Shown: positions 2,998 to 43,183 of the stretch, in pieces
Numbering within the stretch: position 1 is the stretch's first letter
Layout of the letters: the number at the start of each line of letters is the position of its first letter
Notes under the pieces: model-generated
Told to the model about the DNA's origin: nothing
Database searches by the model: none
What the model saw: the letters and a program-made list of their open reading frames with translations, nothing else
Assembly (NCBI GenBank): GCA_030583725.1
Contig: CP129472.1
Coordinates: 465,902 to 529,901, forward strand
DNA length: 64,000 nucleotides
Origin: a bacterium
GTDB taxonomy: Bacteria > Patescibacteriota > Microgenomatia > UBA8517
Direction of reading: 5' to 3'
Position numbers and translations under genes: made by a program

Positions 2998-3025
2998 ATT
3001 ATATATAAATTTTGATAAGTGTCAA
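2998..3025 (-). promoter_or_regulatory. sigma70-like promoter for rpoB (TTGACA-16-TATAAT)
   Basis: Minus-strand reading: TTGACA (plus coordinates 3020-3025), a 16-nt spacer, then TATAAT (2998-3003). This sits about 50 nt upstream of the rpoB ATG and 11 nt past the mltG stop. Confidence 0.55.
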
Positions 3026-3035
3026 CAAGTAAAAA

Positions 3036-3989
3036 CTATCTTAAGTACCGATTAATATTTTGATTATGTTCATCTAGTGTTCTGGCATAATGAATCTTGC
3101 CACTATTGTCATGGATGTAATACCAGTATTCGCTCTCAACAGAATTAATTACAGCATTAATTGTAGACGCACCAGGATTTGCAATTGGTGCGGGGGGGAG
3201 TCCAAGATTCTTGTATGTATTAAAGGGTGACTCGATACCTTTATCTTGTGCATATGCAGGATCCCAATATTTATTGGTCAAGGATACATTTTTATATTTA
3301 ATATTATCTTTAGCATATTGCAGTGTTGCATCTATTTGTAACGGCCAACCGTTTTCTAATCTTTTATACAAAACTCCAGCAACTACTGGTTTTTCCTCAT
3401 TTGTAAACGTTTCTCTTTCCAAAAGGGAAGCCATGATAACCTGTTCTTTGGTTGCATTCTTTACTTTTTGGTCAAATGTTGTGGTTAATCTATTAACAAC
3501 CTGGGTAGCAGATGCTGACTTGGGAAATAAATAAGTATCGGGATAGAGATAACCTTCTTTACCTACGGTTAATCTTAAAAACTCGTCAATAAAATCTGTT
3601 TCCTTGTTTAAGACGATTGCAAACCTAATTGCAATTTCTTCACGTCTTAAACCCTCAGGAATAGTTACCCAAAATTCTGTCGGACCTTTCTTTAGTCTAT
3701 CAACCATTTCAACCAAACTTAGGTTTTGAGTAAGTTGGAACTCACCTGCTTGGATTTTATTTGTATTATTTGTCAGTTGCACATAGAACTTGAAAGCGAT
3801 ACCACTTCGTATAAGCTTGGCGCTTTCCAAGTTATTACCTATTTGGGCAACCGAAGAACCTTTGTTAATTAAAAAATCAACCTCACCACTATTATCAGAG
3901 ACTGGCAAAAGTAGACCCCTAAAGTAGAAAATAAAAACTGCAACAAGTACGAAAGGTAAAAGAATTACTGTAAGTAGTTTAAATTTCAT
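3036..3989 (-). CDS. mltG: endolytic murein transglycosylase MltG (YceG-like)
   Basis: Motifs YLYPDTYLF, LLERET and GLPPAPIANPG, plus an N-terminal transmembrane segment. The likely true start is the internal Met (MKFKLLTVILL); the track ORF extends to 4046. Confidence 0.8.
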   Translation of the reverse strand: MKFKLLTVILLPFVLVAVFIFYFRGLLLPVSDNSGEVDFLINKGSSVAQIGNNLESAKLIRSGIAFKFYVQLTNNTNKIQAGEFQLTQNLSLVEMVDRLKKGPTEFWVTIPEGLRREEIAIRFAIVLNKETDFIDEFLRLTVGKEGYLYPDTYLFPKSASATQVVNRLTTTFDQKVKNATKEQVIMASLLERETFTNEEKPVVAGVLYKRLENGWPLQIDATLQYAKDNIKYKNVSLTNKYWDPAYAQDKGIESPFNTYKNLGLPPAPIANPGASTINAVINSVESEYWYYIHDNSGKIHYARTLDEHNQNINRYLR

Positions 3990-4176
3990 TAAGAAGTGCA
4001 CGCCTATATTTTTTGGTTTTCTCATTATAAATATAAATCCTACCACACTTGCAAGTTACCATTGTCCCATACTTATGACTTTTACTTTCTGCGTTTGATA
4101 ATGAAACACCACAGCCAACACATTTGCCTTGTGACATTAACCAAGCCTGAATAGGAGCGATTACATTTTTAAGCAT
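3979..4176 (-). CDS. small zinc-ribbon protein (CxxC...CxC)
   Basis: The 65-aa ORF contains CVGCG and CKCG cysteine pairs. It sits between ruvX and mltG, like the small yrzB-type genes in the Firmicutes alaS-ruvX-mltG cluster. Confidence 0.4.
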   Translation of the reverse strand: MLKNVIAPIQAWLMSQGKCVGCGVSLSNAESKSHKYGTMVTCKCGRIYIYNEKTKKYRRALLNEI

Positions 4177-4534
4177 TGTCTAGATATGATTGTAACATAA
4201 TAGTTGCTGCAAATGCATCTTCCATCTCGCGTCGTTTTTTTCTACCCATACCCGATTGAATTGACATAACTTGGGCATCATGTGAACTTAGTGTTTCATC
4301 AAACGTTTCAGCTCTAAATTGTTTAGCAAACTCGTTTTGCTCCTTTGCCATTTCACCCTCTGAAATACCAACAACTACTTTTTCTATTTTTTGCTTTTCA
4401 ATTATCCTTTGAATGTGGGCAATCATTTTATCCCAATCTCTGTAGCGAATTACTTGATATGGTTCAGCAAGTTTGCCATCAGAAACAGCAAGACCTATTT
4501 TTCTTCTACCATAATCAATGCCTAAAAATTTCAT
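4169..4534 (-). CDS. ruvX: Holliday junction resolvase-like RuvX/YqgF
   Basis: The N-terminus FLGIDYGRRKIGLAVSD is the canonical YqgF/RuvX RNase H-fold motif. Length is 121 aa. Confidence 0.85.
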   Translation of the reverse strand: MKFLGIDYGRRKIGLAVSDGKLAEPYQVIRYRDWDKMIAHIQRIIEKQKIEKVVVGISEGEMAKEQNEFAKQFRAETFDETLSSHDAQVMSIQSGMGRKKRREMEDAFAATIMLQSYLDNA

Positions 4535-4554
4535 AATCTTTTTGTGGTTTGGTG

Positions 4555-5238
4555 TTAGCTTACCACTCTTGCCCTAACAATTAAACGTTTTGGATTTCTG
4601 GGGTCTCCTGGTGGGGTACAAGTTACCAGTGTTAAAAACGAATCAGAATTGTTTTGTTCTAAAATCTGAATGTCTGTTGGATATATTTCAAACAGTTCTT
4701 CAACTACAAAATCGTATGAAACACCATCAAATTTAACAAAAATCTGATCACCATTTTTTAAAGTAGGAAGTGTTGAGAATATCGCCATATAATTTTTAGG
4801 GTTATAGAAAATTGGTAGAATTGAATGACCGAAAATTACAGCATTGCCGTTTCTACCCGGCAGGGCTGTTCCAGGATACTGTACTAGGTGCTTGGACAAA
4901 TCTTCACCCCCGATTGCGACAATGGCATCTTCTATTTTTAGTTTCGGGATTGTAATTGTGTAAAAATCTACTTTTGACTCCTCAAAATCTTTTGTGTCAG
5001 CCGTAGGAAACCAGGTTGATGCTTTGGTATAGTCGGTGGGTTCTTTTGTTTCATCTTTTTTCTCTAATACTAAAGGGGATAGAAGGGTGGAATAAGATCT
5101 TGCATTGGTCAGTTGATAAACAACAATGGGCCAAATTGAAACAAACAATATAGTAAGCCCAAAAGCGCTTAATCCAAACGACAATAATTTAATAACTTTT
5201 CTTCTGTGACTAAAATTCATTTTTTTAAAGTAAATCAA
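4555..5238 (-). CDS. sortase (membrane-anchored cysteine transpeptidase)
   Basis: N-terminal transmembrane anchor. The TLVTCTP motif matches the sortase catalytic TLxTC signature, with a downstream Arg (RLIVRARV). Its stop abuts the start of the upstream gene (5238/5239). Confidence 0.75.
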   Translation of the reverse strand: MIYFKKMNFSHRRKVIKLLSFGLSAFGLTILFVSIWPIVVYQLTNARSYSTLLSPLVLEKKDETKEPTDYTKASTWFPTADTKDFEESKVDFYTITIPKLKIEDAIVAIGGEDLSKHLVQYPGTALPGRNGNAVIFGHSILPIFYNPKNYMAIFSTLPTLKNGDQIFVKFDGVSYDFVVEELFEIYPTDIQILEQNNSDSFLTLVTCTPPGDPRNPKRLIVRARVVS

Positions 5239-7302
5239 CTACTCTTCAACGGCAAAACTCACTGTCATTCTTTTGGGTATATGGGGAAGAGTTCCCAGCT
5301 TACCGGGGAATAACGGTTTTATTTTAAACTCTGCCTTAGTAAATCCTGTAATACTAGAGAAGTAGTCCTCGGCAAGTTCAGGGTATTTACCTGCTATTTT
5401 CTTTGCAATTTCACCCTCGTCTATGTCTGGTAACAGATTTGCCGTTACTCTTACATTAAAGAGGTCATCTTCAGCCATGATTTCGTATTCAATCTGATCA
5501 TCTTTTAGAACAAAATTCGTAGGAATCTTGTCATTTAGTATTTCTTTAGATTTGGCTAAGAGTTCATCTTTAGAAATGGATATAATTTTAACATCAAGTT
5601 TCAACGACAATTTGATAGATGTGGCCTCATCACCAACTTTATTACTAAACTGTTCGTCACGAGAAACAATTTCAACTGACGAGTCAATAAGTATCTGATT
5701 GGAATCAAGTTTTTGTGAAATTTGAGATTTTGCGTCATTTAGTAATTCTTCTGTTAACTCATCTAGTATTTTCTTTCTATCGCTTTCACTAACTGCCGAA
5801 ATTTGACGACTTGAACCACCACCAAAACCATCAAGGGAAATGGCATCAACCTCAGCTTTTGGATAATTCCCCACCTTAAATATCTCGTCTTTGGATATGT
5901 TATATTCTGAACCAATACTTCCCGCTTCCACCTCTATTTCTCCAGTTCCAGGATTTGATGGAGACAATGCACCAGAGATAGATGCTGAACTTAAAGTTAC
6001 AAATTTTAAATCTGACGAGGACAACAAAGTACTTCCCGCTGCTAAGTTGATAGGAAAGGCTGTGCCATTTTGAACCTTTACCTTACCTTTTGACTTTTCT
6101 CCAACAGTTTTTGTGCCAGTTGTAGAAATAGTTTTTTCACCACTGACGCTTATCTCATTTTCACTAGTCTTAATACTTGAATCTGACTGTATCTCTATAT
6201 TCTCCTCAATTTGTTTTGGTGAAACATATATGGTCACCACAGCTTTAGGTAAAAACCACCACAAAAGAAAACTTGCCACAACTAAAGTCAGGGCTCCGGA
6301 ACCCGCAACTACCAACATCTTGTTGTTTAAATTTAGTTTAGGCATTTTTATACTAGGCCTACTAAAAGTGGTTAGACCTTTAATTTTATTTTTTAAATCA
6401 GGAAGCTGTATTTTTTGGGTTATTGGAAGATCTGGTTCTTCTTTGACAAAACCCAACTCTTCAGCAGTCAGTTTATTAGGCTCTTGAATGTTTTCAACCT
6501 CTTCTGATTCCAAACTTTCAACAACTGTTTCATCAGGCAGTTGACTGTCTTCAACACCACCAACAGCCCCCAGTTCAGATCCACCAGCTAAGGCAACTGC
6601 AATTATCTTTTTCTCTGGGTCAAAAACTTCTATCTTTGGCGTATGGATAAACTTGCTTTGACCTACTTTTTCCCAATCCGAGTTGTTTAAAATTTCTTTA
6701 ACATCTTCTAGTTCTTGCTCTTTCTGGTTATACAAAACGATCCTAGAAGGAAAATTTTCAACTGTATCTTTTAATCTTGTGAGTCCTTCCATTAAATCAT
6801 CTTCCACCGAAACACTTCTTAAAACGTTTGTAACACCAGATAAAGTTCCCAAATTAAATATTGCAATTTCTATATTCTGGTCACTAAGTCCTAAGACTAA
6901 AGCATTAGTGTCGCCATGATCTTCACTTTTAAGAAAGTGGGAGATAGCTTCAGAAAGTACTACAAAACCAGAGGGAACAAGTGATAGCTTCTCACAAATT
7001 ACTTTTAACTCCTCAAGTTTTTCAGGTTTTATGTTTCCATCTTCTATCCAGTTGTTAGATAAACCGAATACCGTCCTACTGGGATCCATTGACTCTTCAG
7101 GTAAAAACTGTGAACAAGCGGATAGTGAAGTATCAATTGCTTCCAATAAATTGTCTTCCCAACGGGTTGGTGGAGATTTTGCGATAACTTCTACCTTACC
7201 ATCTTTTATTTGCCAGACGGCAGAAGTAATCCATTCCGGCTCAATTAAAAGAGCCCAAAAATTCTCTGTATTAGGTTTTTGTTTTTGAAGAAAGTCCAAC
7301 AT
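5239..7302 (-). CDS. hypothetical bitopic membrane protein (N-terminal cytoplasmic domain possibly FtsA/PilM-like, large S/T-rich ectodomain)
   Basis: 687 aa with a single transmembrane helix (MLVVAGSGALTLVVASFLLWWFL) near residue 340. The N-terminal roughly 250 aa (WALLIEPEWITSAVWQIKDGKVEVIAKSPP...) resemble the start of actin-fold FtsA/PilM-type proteins, but this assignment is tentative. The gene is tightly coupled to the sortase gene. Confidence 0.5.
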   Translation of the reverse strand: MLDFLQKQKPNTENFWALLIEPEWITSAVWQIKDGKVEVIAKSPPTRWEDNLLEAIDTSLSACSQFLPEESMDPSRTVFGLSNNWIEDGNIKPEKLEELKVICEKLSLVPSGFVVLSEAISHFLKSEDHGDTNALVLGLSDQNIEIAIFNLGTLSGVTNVLRSVSVEDDLMEGLTRLKDTVENFPSRIVLYNQKEQELEDVKEILNNSDWEKVGQSKFIHTPKIEVFDPEKKIIAVALAGGSELGAVGGVEDSQLPDETVVESLESEEVENIQEPNKLTAEELGFVKEEPDLPITQKIQLPDLKNKIKGLTTFSRPSIKMPKLNLNNKMLVVAGSGALTLVVASFLLWWFLPKAVVTIYVSPKQIEENIEIQSDSSIKTSENEISVSGEKTISTTGTKTVGEKSKGKVKVQNGTAFPINLAAGSTLLSSSDLKFVTLSSASISGALSPSNPGTGEIEVEAGSIGSEYNISKDEIFKVGNYPKAEVDAISLDGFGGGSSRQISAVSESDRKKILDELTEELLNDAKSQISQKLDSNQILIDSSVEIVSRDEQFSNKVGDEATSIKLSLKLDVKIISISKDELLAKSKEILNDKIPTNFVLKDDQIEYEIMAEDDLFNVRVTANLLPDIDEGEIAKKIAGKYPELAEDYFSSITGFTKAEFKIKPLFPGKLGTLPHIPKRMTVSFAVEE

Positions 7303-9001
7303 ATATTCTGATTACGCCGGAGCCAATTTTCTCCTGCTTAATCATTCTAACATTCCCAACAAGTTTTGTGCTAGTAACGTGAGGTCCACCACAAATTTCT
7401 CTTGAAAAATAGTCTTCATTTGAACCTATTGTGTACATTTTTACCTTTTCACCATATTTTTCAGCAAAAAAATGCAAGGCACCTTTTTCAATTGCATCTT
7501 CTGGAGTAGTCTCTATAAATGTAACAGGTAAGTCTTCATCAACCACACGATTGATTGTGTCAAAAACATTAGTTACCTGTTCCTCATTTAATTTTTCAGA
7601 ATATGAAAAGTCAAATCTAAGTCGGTCTTTCGTAATATGACTTCCTTTTTGAGAAACTACGTCACCCAAAACTTTACGAAGTGAGGAATGTAATAAATGT
7701 GTTGCTGTGTGTAATTTAGTTGTTTCTTCCGAAATGTCTTCAAGCCCACCTTTAAAAATTCCAGTTGAGAGACTTTTTGAAGCTGTTCTGTGTTTTTCAA
7801 ATTCATCACCAAATTCTTTTAAATCTACTTTTTGTCCTTTGTCGGTAAACAACTCAATCGTAAGTTCAAGTGGAAAACCATATGACTGATACAAGTCAAA
7901 AGCAATTTTACCTGTAATTTTTTTGACTTTTTTGATTTCTTTTAAACCATTATCCAGACTTACCTTAAACTTCTTTAATTCCTCCAAAATAACAGTATTC
8001 CTAATCACCTTGTCTACATCGGAAAATTTTATAGCCATTCTTCTTATTAGTCTTCTTAATATGTATCCGTGCATTTTATTTGAAGGAACTACACCAGCAT
8101 TAATTAATGCTTCTGATGCCCTTAAATGATCTGCAACTATTCTAAAATTCTTTTTCTCATCTTCATACTTTTTACCTGTAATTTTTTCCAACTTCATAAT
8201 TGTTGGCCAAAAGATATCAGTTTTAAAAACATCTGGGTCATTATTTAATGCAGCGGTTATTCTTTCCAGTCCACCACCGAAATCAACATTTTTTTGTGGA
8301 AGTTCTTCAAGACTTCCATCTTTCATCTTTTTGTACTGAATAAAGACTGAGTTACCAATTTCTAAAAACCTACCACAGTCACAATTTGGGTGGCATTTTT
8401 CACTTTTAAATTCACTATTTTCGTGTAATTTTAGCTTTTCTCCAAAGTCAAAAAATATTTCAGAGTCTGGTCCACCAATTTCACCTTCAGGCATTTCATC
8501 AGGTGTTCCGCTTCTACTCCACCAATTCTTTTTTACACCATATTCAAAAATGTGATTTTCAGAAACCCCCAGATCTTTCCAGATATTGAAACTTTCGGTG
8601 TCTTCTGGAACTGAGTCATTACCCTCAAAAACTGAAACATATAGCTTTGCTGGTGAAAGTTTTAATTCTTTTGTTAAAAATTCCCATACCCAAGGTAGCT
8701 GTTCCTCTTTAAAATAATCACCTAAACTCCAGTTGCCCAACATCTCAAAATAAGTGGTGTGTCTATTGTCCCCAACCTCTTCAATATCTTGAAGTCTAAT
8801 TGAAGGCTGGCTGTCAACTAGTCTGGTCCCGTCAGGATGTTTTTCTCCCATTAAATATGGAACTAGGGGTTGCATACCTGAACTTGTAAAAAGGGTTGTT
8901 GGATCTTTTTCTAAAACAAGTGGAGCAGGAGGAATTATTTTATGCCCCCTTTTTTCGAAGAAACGCAAATATTTTTCTCGGACTTGATTACTTGCAATCA
9001 T
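7271..9001 (-). CDS. alaS: alanyl-tRNA synthetase, short form lacking the C-Ala domain
   Basis: The N-terminus FFEKRGHKIIPPAPLV...DPTTLFTSSGMQ is the class II AlaRS catalytic core. The editing-domain HxxxH (HTATHLLH) and CGGPHV motifs are present. The protein ends after the editing domain at 576 aa. Confidence 0.9.
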   Translation of the reverse strand: MIASNQVREKYLRFFEKRGHKIIPPAPLVLEKDPTTLFTSSGMQPLVPYLMGEKHPDGTRLVDSQPSIRLQDIEEVGDNRHTTYFEMLGNWSLGDYFKEEQLPWVWEFLTKELKLSPAKLYVSVFEGNDSVPEDTESFNIWKDLGVSENHIFEYGVKKNWWSRSGTPDEMPEGEIGGPDSEIFFDFGEKLKLHENSEFKSEKCHPNCDCGRFLEIGNSVFIQYKKMKDGSLEELPQKNVDFGGGLERITAALNNDPDVFKTDIFWPTIMKLEKITGKKYEDEKKNFRIVADHLRASEALINAGVVPSNKMHGYILRRLIRRMAIKFSDVDKVIRNTVILEELKKFKVSLDNGLKEIKKVKKITGKIAFDLYQSYGFPLELTIELFTDKGQKVDLKEFGDEFEKHRTASKSLSTGIFKGGLEDISEETTKLHTATHLLHSSLRKVLGDVVSQKGSHITKDRLRFDFSYSEKLNEEQVTNVFDTINRVVDEDLPVTFIETTPEDAIEKGALHFFAEKYGEKVKMYTIGSNEDYFSREICGGPHVTSTKLVGNVRMIKQEKIGSGVIRIYVGLSSKTKT

Positions 9002-9023
9002 AAACTGAATTATATATCTAAAT

Positions 9024-9051
9024 TTGACACCTATCTAGCTGGGATTATAAT
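9024..9051 (+). promoter_or_regulatory. consensus sigma70 promoter (TTGACA-16-TATAAT) for small plus-strand ORF
   Basis: TTGACA at 9024-9029, a 16-nt spacer, TATAAT at 9046-9051. The first ATG (9063) lies about 12 nt downstream, so the transcript would be leaderless or nearly so. Confidence 0.55.
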
Positions 9052-9062
9052 AGTTGTATCAT

Positions 9063-9287
9063 ATGGAAACTTTAAAGGTACGTGGCATTATACTTAAAGA
9101 TGCAGCATACGCAAAGGCTTTGGAAGCTCAAGGCCTTATCAGCACCGAAGAACTTGAAAAAAAACTCCCAAATTTGGATCCTGGTACAATAGATTTGATA
9201 GGGGCGACCGATATGCGAAGGCGTAATTTACACAAGCCAATTATTCCTCAAGTAATACGTTTAATCCAGGGGTTTAGAAAAAAATAA
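9063..9287 (+). CDS. hypothetical small protein (74 aa from the first ATG)
   Basis: This is the only plus-strand ORF in a long minus-strand block and has a perfect promoter upstream. The track ORF starts at a TTG (9054) that lies inside the -10 region, so ATG 9063 is preferred. No recognisable domain. Confidence 0.35.
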   Translation: METLKVRGIILKDAAYAKALEAQGLISTEELEKKLPNLDPGTIDLIGATDMRRRNLHKPIIPQVIRLIQGFRKK

Positions 9288-9289
9288 AT

Positions 9290-9526
9290 CTATTCTTGTC
9301 CATGGGTAGTTATACTCTTATCTCTTTTAAACATTTCTGCAATTCCTGTTAATCTTTCAGGTCTTATGAGACCTCCACCCAAAACTGCATCTTCTAAAAT
9401 GGAGTTTAGTCTTTTGACTGATTTTCGTAAATCTAAAATTATAAAAACAACTTGTATACCAACTATCACCAACAAAACTGTTAAAGAGATAACTACTATA
9501 ACTAATAGTCTTTGTACTGAATCCAT
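9290..9526 (-). CDS. hypothetical small membrane protein
   Basis: 78 aa with an N-terminal hydrophobic helix (LLVIVVISLTVLLVIVGIQVVFIIL) and a charged C-terminus. Confidence 0.35.
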   Translation of the reverse strand: MDSVQRLLVIVVISLTVLLVIVGIQVVFIILDLRKSVKRLNSILEDAVLGGGLIRPERLTGIAEMFKRDKSITTHGQE

Positions 9527-9547: not shown

Positions 9548-10168
9548 TCATTCTACATTAATATTAACTATTTTTTCAGTTGTTTTTCCTGATCTTGAAA
9601 CAGCAATGAATTTTAAATTGTTGGTTTCAGGAGTTATCTGAAGTTCTGTTGCGAAATTGCCTTCTTGGTCAATTATTATTGGTTGGTTATTAATTGTTAA
9701 AAATACATCAGTTGTCGTTCTACCTGAAACTGAAACTTTATTATTTAAAACAACTCCATTATTTTTAGGAGAAAATATTTCTAAATTTGGTGGTTTTATA
9801 AATTTAAAATATTCAAAGCCCAAGTAACTTAAAACCATTAAGACCAATAACGTTACACCTAAACCAAAAGCGAGCTTTGGTGACCAAAAAAAATTGGTCT
9901 TAACGTCTGGTTTTGGATTAATTGGTAACTTTTGAGGCGGATAATCTCGTCTTAATATTGCATTGGCATTTTCTGGAGGAATGTCTAACATAATTGCCAA
10001 GTTTCTAACAAATCCTGAAACTACAGGAAATGCAGGTAATTTATCCCAAGCATTCTCTTCTATTAATTTTATAAACTCAATCTTAATCTTTGTCTCTCTT
10101 TCAATTTCACTTAAACTAATTTTTTTTAAGTTTCGAGCCGTTTTTAATATTTCCCCAATAGTGTTCAT
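9548..10168 (-). CDS. rodZ: RodZ-like cytoskeleton protein (XRE-type HTH plus transmembrane segment)
   Basis: The N-terminus IGEILKTARNLKKISLSEIERETKIKIEFIKLIEENAWDKLPAFPVVSGFVRNLA matches the RodZ helix-turn-helix domain. A single transmembrane segment is followed by an extracytoplasmic domain. Confidence 0.65.
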   Translation of the reverse strand: MNTIGEILKTARNLKKISLSEIERETKIKIEFIKLIEENAWDKLPAFPVVSGFVRNLAIMLDIPPENANAILRRDYPPQKLPINPKPDVKTNFFWSPKLAFGLGVTLLVLMVLSYLGFEYFKFIKPPNLEIFSPKNNGVVLNNKVSVSGRTTTDVFLTINNQPIIIDQEGNFATELQITPETNNLKFIAVSRSGKTTEKIVNINVE

Positions 10169-10186: not shown

Positions 10187-12277
10187 TTACTTACTAAATG
10201 AAGCCAAAAAGTCATCTGCATTTTTAATTAAAACTTCTCTCGGTTTTGATGAACCATCGGAGACTGCAACCACTCCAGCATCTTGAAGTTGGTCAATAAC
10301 ACGAGCAGCCCTAGCATATCCAATTGATAATTTTCTTTGCAATAAAGATGCAGACGCTCTATCGTATTGGCAAACCACCCTTACAGCTTCTGCAAAAAAG
10401 TCGTCTGTATCACCAGTTACACCTGGTACTGGAGCTTTTCCAGATTTGGTCATTGTTGTTACCTCTTCAGTATATTGAACAGGAACACCTTGATTTTTAA
10501 TAAAACTAACAAGACCTTTGATCTCAGCGTCATTTACAAAAGCACCCTGAATTCTTGCAGGTTTTGCCTGATCTGGTGGTAAATATAACATATCTCCCTT
10601 ACCTAATAGTTTTTCAGCACCTTGTGTATCTAATATAACCCTTGAATCAACTTGCGATGACACAGCAAACGCAATTCTAGTTGGAATGTTTGCTTTAATT
10701 AATCCCGTTATGACGTTAACCGACGGTCTTTGAGTTGCAAGTACCATATGTATTCCAACTGCACGACTCATTTGAGCAATTCTTGTAATTGCATCTTCAA
10801 CTTCAACTGGAGATAGAAGCATAATATCTGCCAACTCATCGATTAATAAAACAATGTAAGGTAGGGCTTGAAAGCCACTCATCTCATTATAACTATCTAT
10901 ATTTCTGGCCCCAGCCTGTGCAAACAACTTATATCTTCTGTCCATTTCTCTAGTTAGCCAACGAAGAGCTGATAAAACTTTATCTGAATCCACAATGACG
11001 GGGGACAATAAATGGGGTATTTCATTATAACCAGTTAGCTCAACCCTTTTAGGGTCAACCATAATAAATTTAACTTCAGACGGACTTGCCCTAAACAATA
11101 TTGATGCTAGAAAAGTGTTAACCGCAACAGATTTTCCAGAACCAGTTTGTCCTGCAATTAAAACGTGGGGCATTTTACCTATGTCTGCAATTACCGGCTT
11201 TCCTGAAACATCAAGGCCTAATGCAACTGTTAATTTTGATTTTCTATTATTCATCTCATCTGACTCTAAAATTCTCTTTAAAGGAACAAATTCTGGAGAT
11301 TTATTTGGAAGCTCTATACCAACCAAATTACGTCCTGGTATTGGAGCCTCGATTCTGATAGTCCCTGTTGGCGCAGAAAGTGCAAGTGCGAGGTCTCGCT
11401 CTAAAGCTGTAATTTTAGATAGCTTAGTACCAAGTGCAACTTGGATTGCATACTGTGTAACGGCAGGTCCCAAATTAACCTCTACAATGTTGGCTGAAAT
11501 TCCAAAAGATTCTAGTGTTTTTTCAATAATATCTGCATTTCCATTGATATCACCCCTATCAACCTTACCTAGAGCTTCATCAGATAATAAATCTAGGGAT
11601 GGATATTTCCAGATAGCATCTTCACCTTTAATGTTACTTACAATTTTTTCTTCTAGTGGTTCTTTTGGTGCTACTATATCTAGTTTTTCTGTAGAAGTTG
11701 AAACACTAGGACTGCTACCTGAAATTTTAAAGTCTTTTCTTGGCAGCATCTTACCCCCACCAGCAGAATTCTGTCCAAATATGTATGTTTTTATTGTGGA
11801 AAACATATGAGCCACATGTTTAAAAACTGCGTCAAATGAAGTATTAAACATAATTACAAAACCTGTGAGTAAAACTCCAAGAAAAATAATAATAGCTCCA
11901 ATCGGCGTAACTAAAGTAGAAACACCATCCCAAAAGACTAAACCCAAATTACCTGACCTCCCCATACCAGAAAGAGATAAAAACATTAACAACGAACCAA
12001 CAATGACATTGGGCTGTGAGATTGGAAGTTTTATTCTACTTAGTAAAAACGAAAAAGATAGAAATATAAAAGGCAAGAAAATTGTAGCAAAACCAAACAT
12101 CTCCATTATGATGTCGTTAAACCTTACAAGAACCAAACCACGCCTTGAAAAGGAAACTATGATAAGTAGAGCAACTGCAAGAAAAAATATTTGTGCAATT
12201 GTTGCAACAGTCTGAGGTTTAAGTTTTAGTTTATAAGCCCTCTTGTCTATCTTTCTCTTTTTGTGTTTCCTTGCCAT
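10187..12277 (-). CDS. ftsK: DNA translocase FtsK/SpoIIIE
   Basis: N-terminal transmembrane helices. Walker A motif GQTGSGKSVAVNT, an FtsK motor-domain signature (LLIDELADIM, VGIHMVLATQRPS) and a C-terminal gamma domain. Confidence 0.9.
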   Translation of the reverse strand: MARKHKKRKIDKRAYKLKLKPQTVATIAQIFFLAVALLIIVSFSRRGLVLVRFNDIIMEMFGFATIFLPFIFLSFSFLLSRIKLPISQPNVIVGSLLMFLSLSGMGRSGNLGLVFWDGVSTLVTPIGAIIIFLGVLLTGFVIMFNTSFDAVFKHVAHMFSTIKTYIFGQNSAGGGKMLPRKDFKISGSSPSVSTSTEKLDIVAPKEPLEEKIVSNIKGEDAIWKYPSLDLLSDEALGKVDRGDINGNADIIEKTLESFGISANIVEVNLGPAVTQYAIQVALGTKLSKITALERDLALALSAPTGTIRIEAPIPGRNLVGIELPNKSPEFVPLKRILESDEMNNRKSKLTVALGLDVSGKPVIADIGKMPHVLIAGQTGSGKSVAVNTFLASILFRASPSEVKFIMVDPKRVELTGYNEIPHLLSPVIVDSDKVLSALRWLTREMDRRYKLFAQAGARNIDSYNEMSGFQALPYIVLLIDELADIMLLSPVEVEDAITRIAQMSRAVGIHMVLATQRPSVNVITGLIKANIPTRIAFAVSSQVDSRVILDTQGAEKLLGKGDMLYLPPDQAKPARIQGAFVNDAEIKGLVSFIKNQGVPVQYTEEVTTMTKSGKAPVPGVTGDTDDFFAEAVRVVCQYDRASASLLQRKLSIGYARAARVIDQLQDAGVVAVSDGSSKPREVLIKNADDFLASFSK

Positions 12278-12329
12278 ATGATAATTACATCATATCAACT
12301 TTTACAATTTGTAGCTAGTTGAAAGATTA

Positions 12330-12623
12330 TTATTCTTTAGTGGAAGCACCTAATTTTTTTGCCAACCTTAGTAACCTCTTGGCTTTATTTTTTTCAAAAT
12401 CTCCAGCATTTGGTGCCTGGGCTTCTACTCCCTCGACAGACTTTATTACAACTTCCGCATCAGCAAGTTTTTTCTTCGCCTCACGCAAGGCGGCTTGCCT
12501 AATAACACCAATGATTTCATTTGGAGTTAGCTTTTCATCTGCTATGTGACTAACAAACTCACCTATCCCAACACCACTAAGATAGCCCAAAACCTTACTG
12601 CTAGGCACCTTCTCTTGTTTCAT
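12330..12623 (-). CDS. hypothetical protein
   Basis: 97-aa ORF between ftsK and rnj with a Lys/Ala-rich tail. No recognised motif. Confidence 0.35.
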   Translation of the reverse strand: MKQEKVPSSKVLGYLSGVGIGEFVSHIADEKLTPNEIIGVIRQAALREAKKKLADAEVVIKSVEGVEAQAPNAGDFEKNKAKRLLRLAKKLGASTKE

Positions 12624-12654
12624 GGGGCAATTTTAATCCAGAAGTCTATAACTG

Positions 12655-14298
12655 TCAAACTTCAACAACAATTGGAATAATCATAGGGCTTCGACCTGTT
12701 GTTTTGAAGAAATAACCTTCTAAAAATTTTATAGCGTCTTCTTTAATCTTTTTGGAGTTCAAATTACTGTGTGTTTTTAAGTGTTTCATCAGCCTTTGCA
12801 TTGCGTCATTTAAAAGCCCACCACTAATACCTTCAAACACAAATCCCTTAGTTACAATTTCTGGATTACCCAAGACCTTACCACTTTTAGTTGCTTTAAA
12901 AACTACAACTGCCATACCTTGCTTACCTAAAAGTGTTCTGTGTTCTAGGACAGTCTTTCCAATGTCCCCAATCCCCAAACCATGAACCATAACTTCTTTA
13001 ACTTTTACTTTTTGACCCCTTCTGGCTGTTCCATTTTCAAATTCTATAGAATCTCCAGGTTTTAATTTAAATACTTGAGATTTTTGCTTACCTGTTGAAA
13101 CTACAAGTTTTTCATATGAATGCATATGTTTTATAGTTCCACCTGTTGGTATAAAATATTTAGGTTTTGCTATATCAAAAAGCATTTTGATGTCTTCCTG
13201 TCCACCATGACCAGAAACATGTAAGCCTTCTTTTAAGTCATAATAGTGAACATCGACACCGCGGTCTATAAGTTCATCTATTATAAAATCTTGGCTCTCT
13301 TTTGAATAAGGTGGGGCAGGGTTTGCTGAAAAAATAAACATATCTCCATCAGAAATTGAAAATCTATCATCGTCGTCTGTAGCTAATCTGTAAACAGAAC
13401 TGCCAACTTGGCCATAACACCCAGCCACAATATATAATAGGTCTTTTGGATGCATTCTTTTGGCCTTTTTAAGATCTACAACTTGGCTATCCAAATATTT
13501 TAAATACCCAAGCTTATGTGCAGATTCTGTTTTTTGTTGAATAGATCTTCCAACAAAAACTACTTTTCTATTTAACTTAACTGCAACATTGATCATTTGT
13601 TGAAACCTGCCAATTGATGATGACATGGCACTCATAAATAGTGCGTTTTTGGCATTCTTAGCAATATTTAAAATTCTTTCTTCAACAGGAACAGCGCTTG
13701 GTGCAAATCCTGGTTCGTTTGACCCTAAACAATCAGAAATTAAACAAATCACATTACCCTCTGCAAGTTTTCTGGCCCTATCTAGGTCAAAAGAGTGACC
13801 GTCAACAGACTCTTGATCAATTTTGTGTTCAGGGACATGCATAATTTTCCCCTCTGGTGTTTCTATTGCAAAACCAACAGTGTCTGGAACCGAGTGAGTA
13901 ACTTTAAATGGAGATATCTTAAATGAACCTATTTGGAAAGTATCCATATCCGAATTGAAAGTATTGATTTTAAAGTCAGTAATTCTATTATCTCTAAATT
14001 TCTCTTTTAAAAATTCTGCAACCAGAGGAGCGCAGTAAATTGGTGCATTTACCTGTTTTAATAAAAATGGTAATGCTCCAATATGATCCTCATGGCCTTG
14101 AGACAAAACGATAGCTTTTAGTTTGTGTTTATTTTTAACAACATATGAAAAGTCTGGAATAACAAGGTCAACTCCAGGCATTTCTAAATCAGGAAAACCT
14201 ACACCACAATCAAGGATAAACATTTCATCCTTGTATTCGTAGACATTTAAGTTTTCTGTAACCCCTGTCGTTCCAGAGAGTGCTATGAAGCGTACCAT
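12655..14298 (-). CDS. rnj: ribonuclease J (metallo-beta-lactamase/beta-CASP)
   Basis: HEDHIGALP (the HxHxDH motif), the beta-CASP region and a C-terminal domain. Length is 547 aa. Confidence 0.85.
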   Translation of the reverse strand: MVRFIALSGTTGVTENLNVYEYKDEMFILDCGVGFPDLEMPGVDLVIPDFSYVVKNKHKLKAIVLSQGHEDHIGALPFLLKQVNAPIYCAPLVAEFLKEKFRDNRITDFKINTFNSDMDTFQIGSFKISPFKVTHSVPDTVGFAIETPEGKIMHVPEHKIDQESVDGHSFDLDRARKLAEGNVICLISDCLGSNEPGFAPSAVPVEERILNIAKNAKNALFMSAMSSSIGRFQQMINVAVKLNRKVVFVGRSIQQKTESAHKLGYLKYLDSQVVDLKKAKRMHPKDLLYIVAGCYGQVGSSVYRLATDDDDRFSISDGDMFIFSANPAPPYSKESQDFIIDELIDRGVDVHYYDLKEGLHVSGHGGQEDIKMLFDIAKPKYFIPTGGTIKHMHSYEKLVVSTGKQKSQVFKLKPGDSIEFENGTARRGQKVKVKEVMVHGLGIGDIGKTVLEHRTLLGKQGMAVVVFKATKSGKVLGNPEIVTKGFVFEGISGGLLNDAMQRLMKHLKTHSNLNSKKIKEDAIKFLEGYFFKTTGRSPMIIPIVVEV

Positions 14299-41353: not shown

Positions 41354-43183
41354 ATGGATAATTTAAATAAACAGCAGATTGAGGCGGTGGAATATGTAAA
41401 CGGTCCACTATTGGTACTTGCTGGCGCAGGTTCAGGAAAGACCAAAGTTTTAACACATAGGGTAATACATTTAATTAACAAAAAACTTGTTAATCCAGAA
41501 AACTGTCTCCTTTTAACTTTTACCAACAAGGCCGCCAAAGAGATGAATGAAAGGATGGGTGATATTAATTTGGGGTTTGCTGGTACTTTTCATGGTTTTA
41601 GTGTTAGGGTTCTCCGAGCTGATGGTAAAGCCATTGGGATTGATCAAAACTTTTTAATATATGATGACAATGACCAAAAGGACTTGATTAAAGATATTGT
41701 TAATAAATTAAATATCAAGGATTCTGTTAAACCTGCTTCTATTCTTTACTCTATAAGTGAAATAAAAAACCAGATGCTTACTCCAAGCAGTTATGCAGAA
41801 ATTGCTGTTGGTGATTTTGGTAGAACAGTTGCAGATGTTTACTTTGAATATGAAAAAAAGTTAAAAGAAATAAATGCATTAGATTTTGATGATTTGTTAA
41901 TAAAAACAGTTTTGCTTTTTGAAGTTCCTGAAGTTATCAATAAGTGGAGAAATAGAATTAAACAAATATTTGTTGATGAATGGCAAGACACCAATAAAAT
42001 ACAGTATAGGCTAATTAGACTGTTGGACGGCAATAGGGGAATTGTTACTGCTGTGGGTGATAGTAGTCAATCGATTTACAGTTGGCGTGGCGCAGATTAT
42101 AGAAACATAAATCTATTAATTAAAGACTATCCCCAGATAAAAGTTGTTAATTTGGAGCAAAACTACCGCAGTACACAAAACATCTTGGAAGCTGCAAATT
42201 CTGTAATATCAAAAAACACCAGTCATCCAATTTTGAAACTTTGGACAGAAAAGGGATTGGGTGAAAAGATATCGATTTACTCCGCAAGGAGCGGTTTTGA
42301 TGAAGCAGAATACCTATCTCGAGAAATTACAAGAACTGTCAAGGTCGGTAAAAACAAATACTTAGACATTGCAGTTTTATATAGAACAAATGCACAATCC
42401 CGTGTCATAGAAGAAGCCTTGTTACATTCTGGAATTCCATACACATTAATCGGCGGTGTAAGGTTCTATGACCGAAAAGAAATTAAGGACATACTTTCAT
42501 ACCTTAGGTTAATTGCCAATCCTAAGGATATAGTTTCTCAAAAAAGAGCTCTGGCATTAGGCAAGCGTAGGTTTGAAAAATTTCAAAGTATTAATGTTGA
42601 TACAGAAACACATACAACTCTTGAAATAATGGATATTATCCTTGCAAAAACTGAGTACTTAACTAAGTTCAAGGAGGTTGACCCAGAAGACGCAGAACGT
42701 TTGGAAAACATAAAGGAGTTTAGATCTGTTGCCATTGAGTTTCCAAATATATATGACTTTTTGGAAAATACAGCCCTAGTCGAAGCTGGCTCAAACAAAA
42801 ATAGTAATAAAAATGCTATTACACTAATGACTCTTCACTCAGCAAAAGGTTTAGAATTTCCAATTGTTTTTATGGTTGGAATGGAAGAAGGATTGTTTCC
42901 TCATTCAAGATCACTTTGGGAAAAAGATCAAATGGAGGAAGAAAGAAGGCTTTGTTATGTTGGAATAACCAGAGCCAAAGAAGTACTATATATGACCTAT
43001 GCCAGTAAACGACTTTTTTACGGTGAAACATCTTCTAACTCACCAAGCAGGTTTTTGTCAGACATACCTGAAGAATTGTTAAATGGTAGAATCGAAACGG
43101 TTGCAGGAAATAGTGATAATGATTCACAAATCAGCGATAATGACCTTAATTTCGATGATATACTAGATAAGTATTTAAAATGA
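41354..43183 (+). CDS. UvrD/PcrA-family ATP-dependent DNA helicase (short)
   Basis: Walker A AGAGSGKTKVLT, motifs DEWQDTN and VGDSSQSIYSWRGA. Length is 609 aa. Confidence 0.85.
   Translation: MDNLNKQQIEAVEYVNGPLLVLAGAGSGKTKVLTHRVIHLINKKLVNPENCLLLTFTNKAAKEMNERMGDINLGFAGTFHGFSVRVLRADGKAIGIDQNFLIYDDNDQKDLIKDIVNKLNIKDSVKPASILYSISEIKNQMLTPSSYAEIAVGDFGRTVADVYFEYEKKLKEINALDFDDLLIKTVLLFEVPEVINKWRNRIKQIFVDEWQDTNKIQYRLIRLLDGNRGIVTAVGDSSQSIYSWRGADYRNINLLIKDYPQIKVVNLEQNYRSTQNILEAANSVISKNTSHPILKLWTEKGLGEKISIYSARSGFDEAEYLSREITRTVKVGKNKYLDIAVLYRTNAQSRVIEEALLHSGIPYTLIGGVRFYDRKEIKDILSYLRLIANPKDIVSQKRALALGKRRFEKFQSINVDTETHTTLEIMDIILAKTEYLTKFKEVDPEDAERLENIKEFRSVAIEFPNIYDFLENTALVEAGSNKNSNKNAITLMTLHSAKGLEFPIVFMVGMEEGLFPHSRSLWEKDQMEEERRLCYVGITRAKEVLYMTYASKRLFYGETSSNSPSRFLSDIPEELLNGRIETVAGNSDNDSQISDNDLNFDDILDKYLK

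Follow-up and report, generated by a model that had tools for sequence, protein, structure and literature searches.

A conserved gene pair behind alaS in Microgenomates bacteria: a sortase and a bitopic protein with a predicted baseplate-J-like ectodomain

Introduction

In Bacillus subtilis the genes alaS, ruvX (yrrK) and mltG (yrrL) are co-oriented with small genes between them, in the order alaS–yrzL–yrrK–yrzB–yrrL, with alaS lying just beyond yrrK and yrrL. The yrrL and yrrK genes are catalogued as BSU27370 and BSU27390, respectively (PMC3814617). Here we describe the corresponding locus in a 64,000-nucleotide (nt) stretch of bacterial DNA (contig CP129472.1 of assembly GCA_030583725.1, positions 465,902 to 529,901 of the forward strand), referred to throughout as the window, in which the three genes are likewise co-oriented and separated by small genes. 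The B. subtilis arrangement differs in that here the interval between alaS and ruvX is filled by a gene for a sortase and one for a 687-amino-acid (aa) membrane protein that we call X, while a zinc-ribbon gene occupies the interval between ruvX and mltG and the string extends up to a rodZ-like gene, ftsK and rnj and down to rpoB. The X–sortase pair is ancestral to a group of Microgenomates bacteria of the candidate phyla radiation (CPR), and X is tentatively proposed to be a membrane scaffold that works with the sortase.

The few envelope enzymes that are enriched in CPR bacteria include sortases, and we know of nothing that has been described about sortase substrates or partners there. The family is reported to occur almost throughout Microgenomates and to be patchy elsewhere in the CPR (PMC6744442). 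The window enzyme shares its fold and family, an N-terminal anchor and the His–Cys–Arg residues with the Gram-positive sortases of housekeeping and pilus type (classes A, C, D and E), but falls far under the class cutoffs and carries a lineage-conserved D-x-T...W-F motif. Its setting also differs from theirs, as no pilin or LPXTG-protein genes adjoin it and its place is behind alaS in a string of housekeeping genes, next to a unique partner gene.

For X, the closest described systems are found in three places. GspL and the PilM–PilN pair share with it a plan in which a cytoplasmic actin-like domain is joined, or bound, through one transmembrane (TM) helix to an extracytoplasmic domain, and the actin-like domain of GspL is likewise without ATPase motifs; the outer domain of X is, however, predicted to be baseplate-J-like rather than of the PilN, PilO or GspL type, and no pilus or secretion genes lie nearby. 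FtsA shares the actin-like fold, and the neighbourhood of X has an envelope and division theme (ftsK, rodZ-like, mltG), but the N-terminal domain of X is only ~240 aa long and without DxG phosphate loops, the gene is not in the dcw cluster, and the protein, which has a large ectodomain, uses a true TM helix as its anchor and not an amphipathic helix. The baseplate wedge J family (Mu gp47, T4 gp6, XkdT and TssF of the type VI secretion system) is similar in fold and domain order over the 336-aa ectodomain, whereas X is cellular, exported, membrane-tethered and fused to an actin-like domain, with no contractile-system genes around it. The CPR 'Pam' pilus operon was also considered and is a different locus.

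Conservation and age of the gene pair

The proteins of the window were run by tblastn against 76 species-level loci taken from a scan of one genome per GTDB species, to which nine more distant loci were added, giving 85. Wherever the contig was long enough, the order rnj–ftsK–rodZ-like–p78–alaS–X–sortase–ruvX–zn65–mltG was found in the 76 loci, p78 and zn65 being small genes described below. The core alaS–X–sortase is kept in the 85 loci where the contig permits, with two exceptions (one sortase missing, one gene inserted), and ruvX–(zn65)–mltG–rpoB usually comes next. Distant loci in which X is only 25–30% identical to the window protein retain alaS–X–sortase, namely L075 from Pacebacteria, the Logan/ENA contigs L077, L079–L081 and L083, and the Amesbacteria-type L084; L078 duplicates the context of L077, and L082 is too short to show neighbours. 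In two of the distant loci, L075 and L080, rpoB also adjoins mltG.

The spacing within the string is uneven. Intergenic distances across the loci are estimates, by which X–sortase is the tightest junction: its median gap is -14 nt, and in 67 of 74 loci the gap does not exceed 50 nt. The median gap is 1 nt from sortase to ruvX, 10 nt from alaS to X, 44 nt from p78 to alaS (above 300 nt in 18 of 65) and 38 nt from ruvX to zn65 (above 300 nt in 10 of 65), so that insertions gather at the last two junctions instead. Changes downstream leave the pair intact: three opposite-strand genes separate the sortase gene from ruvX in L077, and HD and HrcA genes come after it in L081, with X and sortase still together in both.

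This shared gene order is far beyond chance. A first-pass annotation of the locus had described the pair as inserted into a conserved cluster, a misleading wording in that it suggests a recent event: the pair occupies one fixed position in Woese-, Pace- and Amesbacteria alike, even where the identity of X falls to 25–30%, so it is ancestral to the group, vertically inherited and dates to its base. The annotation had itself proposed a comparison with relatives and a search for mobile-element scars. The pair proved to be at the same locus throughout and not at unrelated ones, and no scars were found at its flanks, where the only repeats are short, imperfect ones expected by chance. The guanine-plus-cytosine (GC) content is 0.35–0.38 throughout the window, with no compositional step. 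An anti-phage defence system was also entertained and is without support, a PADLOC scan having given no defence matches.

Architecture of X

The gene for X (5239..7302, minus strand) encodes a 687-aa bitopic protein of a Microgenomates-group family that has no Pfam or NCBIfam match above threshold. The family is large: it counts 3922 cluster representatives (50% identity) at a threshold of E<=1e-3, and 1026 when the threshold is E<=1e-30. Among the best 150 representatives, most are ~700 aa long and match both halves of the protein, and about ten are shorter fragments. A single-protein metagenome scan for very distant relatives gave one locus. Some sources label homologs 'baseplate J/gp47 family protein', but literature searches found no description of the family, of its pairing with a sortase, or of the domain combination of actin-like fold, TM helix and baseplate-J-like fold. 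Sequence searches of the PDB, with a single sequence or with a profile, returned nothing meaningful. The architecture was read from an AlphaFold2 model made with a 30-sequence alignment (mean predicted local distance difference test score, pLDDT, 79.8), which has two well-predicted halves split by a disordered stretch (residues 252–326) and a helix (residues 327–350).

The N-terminal half is an actin-like (ASKHA) domain by its predicted fold (residues 9–251; 6550..7278, minus strand; pLDDT ~86–94). Foldseek searches of the PDB with this segment placed PilM of Pseudomonas aeruginosa at the top (5eoy/5eox, E ~2e-8), with further matches to Ppx/GppA, MecR2, small ASKHA proteins and FtsA (7q6i, 3wt0). 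Sequence models of the PilM, FtsA, MreB, PilN and GspL families in Pfam and NCBIfam gave no match even at E<=1. Across 30 homologs the sequence is LLIE21PEW at the phosphate-1 loop and VVG138xSxE at the phosphate-2 loop, so that DxG is absent from both, and an adenosine-type LAGGSE motif is retained; the loop positions were assigned by hand from the strand order of the model. The domain has 41 invariant columns and is therefore under strong constraint, and we infer from the modelled loops that it is probably a non-catalytic scaffold domain.

An acidic linker follows (residues 252–326; 6325..6549, minus strand), which is predicted to be disordered (pLDDT <50) and holds 15 Asp/Glu against 9 Lys/Arg. 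Its mean identity to the window protein is only 36%, yet G284 and F285 of an LGF motif within it are invariant. The single TM helix (approximately residues 327–351; 6250..6324, minus strand) coincides with a Kyte–Doolittle peak of 2.25 at residues 328–360 and has a Lys/Arg-rich stretch on its N-terminal side, which predicts the N-terminus inside and the C-terminus outside. With one hydrophobic segment, at about residues 328–352, and this charged stretch before it, X is bitopic, as the first-pass annotation had recognised.

The extracytoplasmic half (residues 352–687; 5242..6249, minus strand) was modelled separately, with a pLDDT of 86.9, and begins with a barrel (residues 352–503; 5794–6249, minus strand). 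No other region of X is as well conserved, the mean identity of the barrel to the window protein being 65%. Foldseek searches of the PDB matched the ectodomain to baseplate chains of phi812 (9euf_I, E 1e-5), XM1 (7kh1), Mu (9ki1), A-1(L), diffocin (8v3w) and phiCD508, at a Foldseek probability of 1.00 for phi812, XM1, Mu, diffocin and phiCD508, and its matches in BFVD are named 'Baseplate J like protein'. Mu 9ki1 aligns with the barrel over 100 columns at a root mean square deviation of 3.2 Å and 25% identity; when the full-length ectodomain is aligned (~340 columns) the TM-scores are low, as would fit domains that are oriented differently. Sequence models point the same way, in that Pfam Baseplate_J (PF04865) matches 28 of 30 homologs weakly at E<=1 (best E 9.9e-7) and phrog_6, 'baseplate wedge subunit', matches 17 of the 30; the window protein itself scores 13.6 bits against PF04865, below the gathering cutoff of 21.1. 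On the strength of the model, the ectodomain thus appears to resemble the phage baseplate wedge protein J/gp47. No tail, baseplate or other phage genes lie near X, and the context is the same in the 85 loci.

The sortase

The partner gene (4555..5220, minus strand, with an alternative TTG start at 5238) encodes a member of the sortase family, scoring 88.7 bits against a cutoff of 26.6 for PF04203 and 55.7 against 39.35 for TIGR01076. The NCBIfam models of classes A to F all score it under their cutoffs (class C 60.7 of 160, E 43.8 of 160, D 40.1 of 165 and F 27.8 of 166), and judged by these scores the enzyme fits no defined class. Among solved structures it comes closest to enzymes of classes C, D and A, at modest E values of 1e-10 to 1e-6. 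A TM segment at residues 8–38, preceded by HRRK, is predicted to anchor the protein with its catalytic domain outside.

In 17 orthologs, distant ones included, the catalytic residues H132 (in FGHS), C201 (in LVTC) and R212 are invariant. Equally invariant, even in orthologs at 34–45% identity, is the D63-x-T65...W70-F71 motif, which lies ~25 residues upstream of the catalytic core and may be a lid-like or docking element.

Does X work with the sortase?

The reading that we tentatively prefer, as quite possible though short of probable, makes X a membrane scaffold that works with the housekeeping sortase and is expressed together with alaS and mltG. The J-like domain would dock, position or regulate the sortase or its substrates outside the membrane, and the actin-like domain with the linker motif would couple to an intracellular partner, in the manner of the GspL and PilM–PilN platforms. 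The X ectodomain and the catalytic domain of the sortase are both predicted on the outer side of the membrane, and the published distribution of sortases in the CPR (PMC6744442) matches that seen for X. Co-variation was assessed by a mirror-tree test over 51 taxa, with the species signal (rnj, ftsK, alaS) regressed out. For the X barrel against the catalytic domain of the sortase the partial r was 0.41 (permutation p 0.0005), and for the N-terminal domain and C-terminal subdomain of X against the sortase it was ~0. In an all-against-all control over 18 protein segments (140 inter-protein pairs), the barrel and the catalytic domain (r 0.39) were reciprocal best inter-protein partners. A related idea, that the RodZ-type helix-turn-helix (HTH) domain binds the actin-like domain of X by analogy with RodZ–MreB, was withdrawn, since its apparent signal (r 0.43–0.48, with 0.43 in a partial Mantel test) is non-specific: in the same control the N-terminal domain of X co-varies equally with ftsK and rnj segments.

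Several results weigh against a working partnership of X and the sortase, and some of them fit a serious alternative that we regard as only slightly less probable, in which synteny carries no shared function, gene order around alaS is frozen, and X works independently, for example as a scaffold of the elongasome, the divisome or a pilus platform, acting through its actin-like domain. The adjacency of alaS and X is as conserved as that of X and the sortase, and the entire ten-gene string from rnj to mltG is conserved; adjacency alone therefore tells little of function and may be no more than the frozen gene order of a reduced genome. In the control the barrel–sortase pair ranks ninth of 140 (~94th percentile) and is not an outlier, so that against the all-pairs null the co-variation is suggestive and not significant. 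One Woesebacteria contig (L004, 1–3083) reads alaS–X–ruvX, with X and ruvX lying ~11 nt apart and the sortase gene absent from between them; it is either a natural sortase-less variant or an assembly artefact, and the contig is too short to show a sortase elsewhere. The locus L071 has a short-chain dehydrogenase (SDR) gene of 230 aa (12182–12874) between X and the sortase, the only insertion seen at that junction. No sortase substrate with a C-terminal sorting signal occurs among the open reading frames (ORFs) of the 64-kb window; X gave no tblastn match in 50,697 phage records, and its J-like assignment consists of fold similarity and sub-threshold sequence matches. Co-transcription of X and the sortase, and their interaction, are both things that we infer. 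An independent scaffold would suit the likeness of the N-terminal domain to PilM and FtsA and the presence of RodZ-like, FtsK and MltG genes as neighbours, but it leaves aside that the X–sortase junction is the tightest of the string and survives the downstream changes of L077 and L081, that the barrel and the catalytic domain are each other's best co-varying partners, and that both face outside.

Two further explanations concern what X is. It could be a substrate of the sortase, or a nucleophile-bearing anchor for other proteins, as the adjacency of the genes and a conserved C-terminal loop (KPxLPGKLGTLPH, with L672-P673 invariant, in an exposed region of lower model confidence) might suggest; this we consider very improbable, as the loop is without the conserved Thr-Gly of LPXTG-type signals and reads LPSDQ in a Pacebacteria homolog, it precedes a structural beta-strand and not a hydrophobic tail with a charged end, and X already has a membrane anchor in its own helix. 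In particular, X is unlikely to be a substrate of the classical kind, having no LPXTG motif followed by a hydrophobic tail. That the pair is a recent insertion, a mobile element or a prophage remnant, as the 'baseplate J/gp47' label and the fold matches to phage baseplates could be taken to mean, is effectively refuted by its unchanged position throughout the 85 related loci, with even GC and no flanking repeats, by the lack of other phage genes nearby and of matches among the phage records, and by the fusion of X to a TM helix and an actin-like domain.

The first-pass annotation had gone on to suggest constitutive anchoring of surface proteins, tied to wall growth. This is plausible and compatible with the data, the string being co-oriented and the pair being flanked by RodZ-like, FtsK and MltG genes.

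Gene layout and transcription signals

Six closely spaced minus-strand genes fill positions 3036–9001 in the order alaS, X, sortase, ruvX, zn65 and mltG, and neighbours within this series overlap or are separated by 20 nt or less. ORF calls and family scans bear out the gene identities and order of the first-pass annotation, alaS–X–sortase–ruvX–(small gene)–mltG. The putative first gene of the transcription unit is alaS (7271..9001, minus strand), which encodes a short-form alanine-tRNA ligase of 576 aa (NF002436, 594.3 bits against a cutoff of 529; PF01411 and PF07973). Translational coupling, also proposed in that annotation, is reasonable between alaS and X, where the 3' end of alaS overlaps the ATG of X by 32 nt, but is less so between X and the sortase. 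These two genes abut, the TAG stop of X being followed immediately by the alternative TTG, and the ATG at 5220 lies 18 nt further on, behind a spacer in which no obvious Shine–Dalgarno motif was seen. The ATG at 5220, giving 221 aa, is the more likely start rather than 5238; it matches the annotated 221-aa sortase (P0268) and the N-termini of orthologs.

A gap of 20 nt separates the sortase gene from ruvX (yqgF; 4169..4534, minus strand), which encodes 121 aa and scores 91.7 bits for PF03652 and 53.3 against a cutoff of 43.25 for TIGR00250. It overlaps by 8 nt with zn65 (3979..4176, minus strand), the gene for a 65-aa CxxC...CxC zinc-ribbon protein, which in turn abuts or overlaps mltG. The zn65 protein has no family match in the Pfam, NCBIfam or PADLOC scans; it is kept at this position in ~65 of the 76 loci at 55–89% identity and is specific to the Microgenomates-group lineage. 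In B. subtilis the slot that it fills is held by yrzB. The last gene of the series, mltG (yceG; 3036..4046, minus strand), encodes an endolytic transglycosylase with a predicted N-terminal TM segment (PF02618, 241 bits; TIGR00247, 194.9 against 103.4), whose true start is probably the ATG at 4025 or that at 3989.

Promoters were sought by pattern match to the TTGACA/TATAAT consensus, scored out of 12, and the sites named here are pattern evidence only. The scan showed no overall surplus of promoter-like sites, and 12/12 matches fall only in the two intergenic regions that bracket alaS–mltG. One, TTGACA-16-TATAAT at 2998..3025 (minus strand, 12/12), lies between mltG and rpoB and probably marks the start of the next transcription unit, that of rpoB. 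Just upstream of alaS is a 10/12 match, TAGATA-17-TATAAT at 9009..9037 (minus strand), and a perfect sigma-70 consensus (12/12) at 9024..9051 on the plus strand is divergent from alaS. Between alaS and mltG there is neither a 12/12 match nor a convincing terminator, a pattern consistent with a single unit of ~6 kb running from alaS to mltG. The promoter upstream of alaS would then drive joint transcription as far as mltG, and X and the sortase would be produced constitutively, as would an essential tRNA synthetase and MltG, the glycan-strand terminase. Downstream of the divergent site lies a 74-aa ORF (9063–9287, plus strand) that has no homolog in the 76 related loci; the junction in which it falls, p78–alaS, is prone to insertions throughout the group.

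Neighbouring genes and host lineage

Upstream of alaS, and in the same order in the 76 loci, are genes for the TM protein p78 (9290–9526), a RodZ-like HTH_25 protein (9548–10168) and FtsK (10187–12277), all on the minus strand, the latter two identified with Pfam. The RodZ-like protein, whose gene stands upstream of alaS in all loci, has a RodZ-type HTH_25 domain and one TM segment, and where RodZ usually has its C-terminal domain it carries a Glucodextran_B-like beta-sandwich. On the other side of the unit the rpoB frame begins at ~2944 (minus strand) and continues past the window edge. The rest of the window, at ~35% GC, holds genes for PNPase, DnaK, MurJ, UvrD helicases, MetRS and GroEL and one tRNA, which fits a small housekeeping genome. 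A match to Rfam RF03531 ('C. difficile sRNA included into helicase gene') at 42913–43008 (plus strand; 67.5 bits against a gathering cutoff of 65.2) sits inside a UvrD-type helicase ORF (41354–43183) and is most likely conserved coding sequence rather than a small RNA.

The window protein X is identical to QY322_02685 [bacterium] (P0001), encoded on an 841,695-bp contig, and its relatives are annotated as Patescibacteria or Microgenomates. Nearly all of the 76 loci from the GTDB scan are from Woesebacteria or Microgenomates, with one from Pacebacteria, and a more distant cluster representative of X comes from Candidatus Amesbacteria. The host is an ultra-small, uncultured CPR bacterium of the Microgenomates group. 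The first-pass annotation had framed the locus through the Firmicutes, which is apt for the comparison with B. subtilis (PMC3814617) and wrong for the host: a Firmicutes origin is ruled out, the exact match to X being from the genome of an uncultured bacterium and its relatives all being Woese-, Pace- or Amesbacteria. Many of the GTDB species-representative records (L002, L010, L013 and L014 among them) are titled 'uncultured Gammaproteobacteria bacterium', and one is titled Alphaproteobacteria. Their loci share the Woesebacteria-type gene string at 40–59% protein identity, and because they share both sequence and gene order with Woesebacteria the taxonomy of these records appears to be wrong.

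Implications for CPR bacteria

A wider and more speculative extension, which we rate as rather unlikely, is that X and the sortase form a surface-assembly module common to the Microgenomates, in which the cell has co-opted a phage baseplate fold for envelope biogenesis in episymbiotic, ultra-small bacteria. The J-like ectodomain would oligomerise into a platform on the membrane's outer side, connected across the membrane to the degenerate actin-like domain. With this platform the sortase would build or anchor a surface structure where the wall is synthesised, for instance an attachment fibre or a wall-linked adhesin.

The locus supplies a concrete candidate partner for a CPR sortase, located in a housekeeping string that is probably always expressed. 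Should X and the sortase prove to have no functional link, the locus would still put right a taxonomic misreading and document a deeply conserved gene string of use to the comparative genomics of the CPR. If the link is true, it would offer an entry into how uncultured, host-dependent bacteria build their surfaces.

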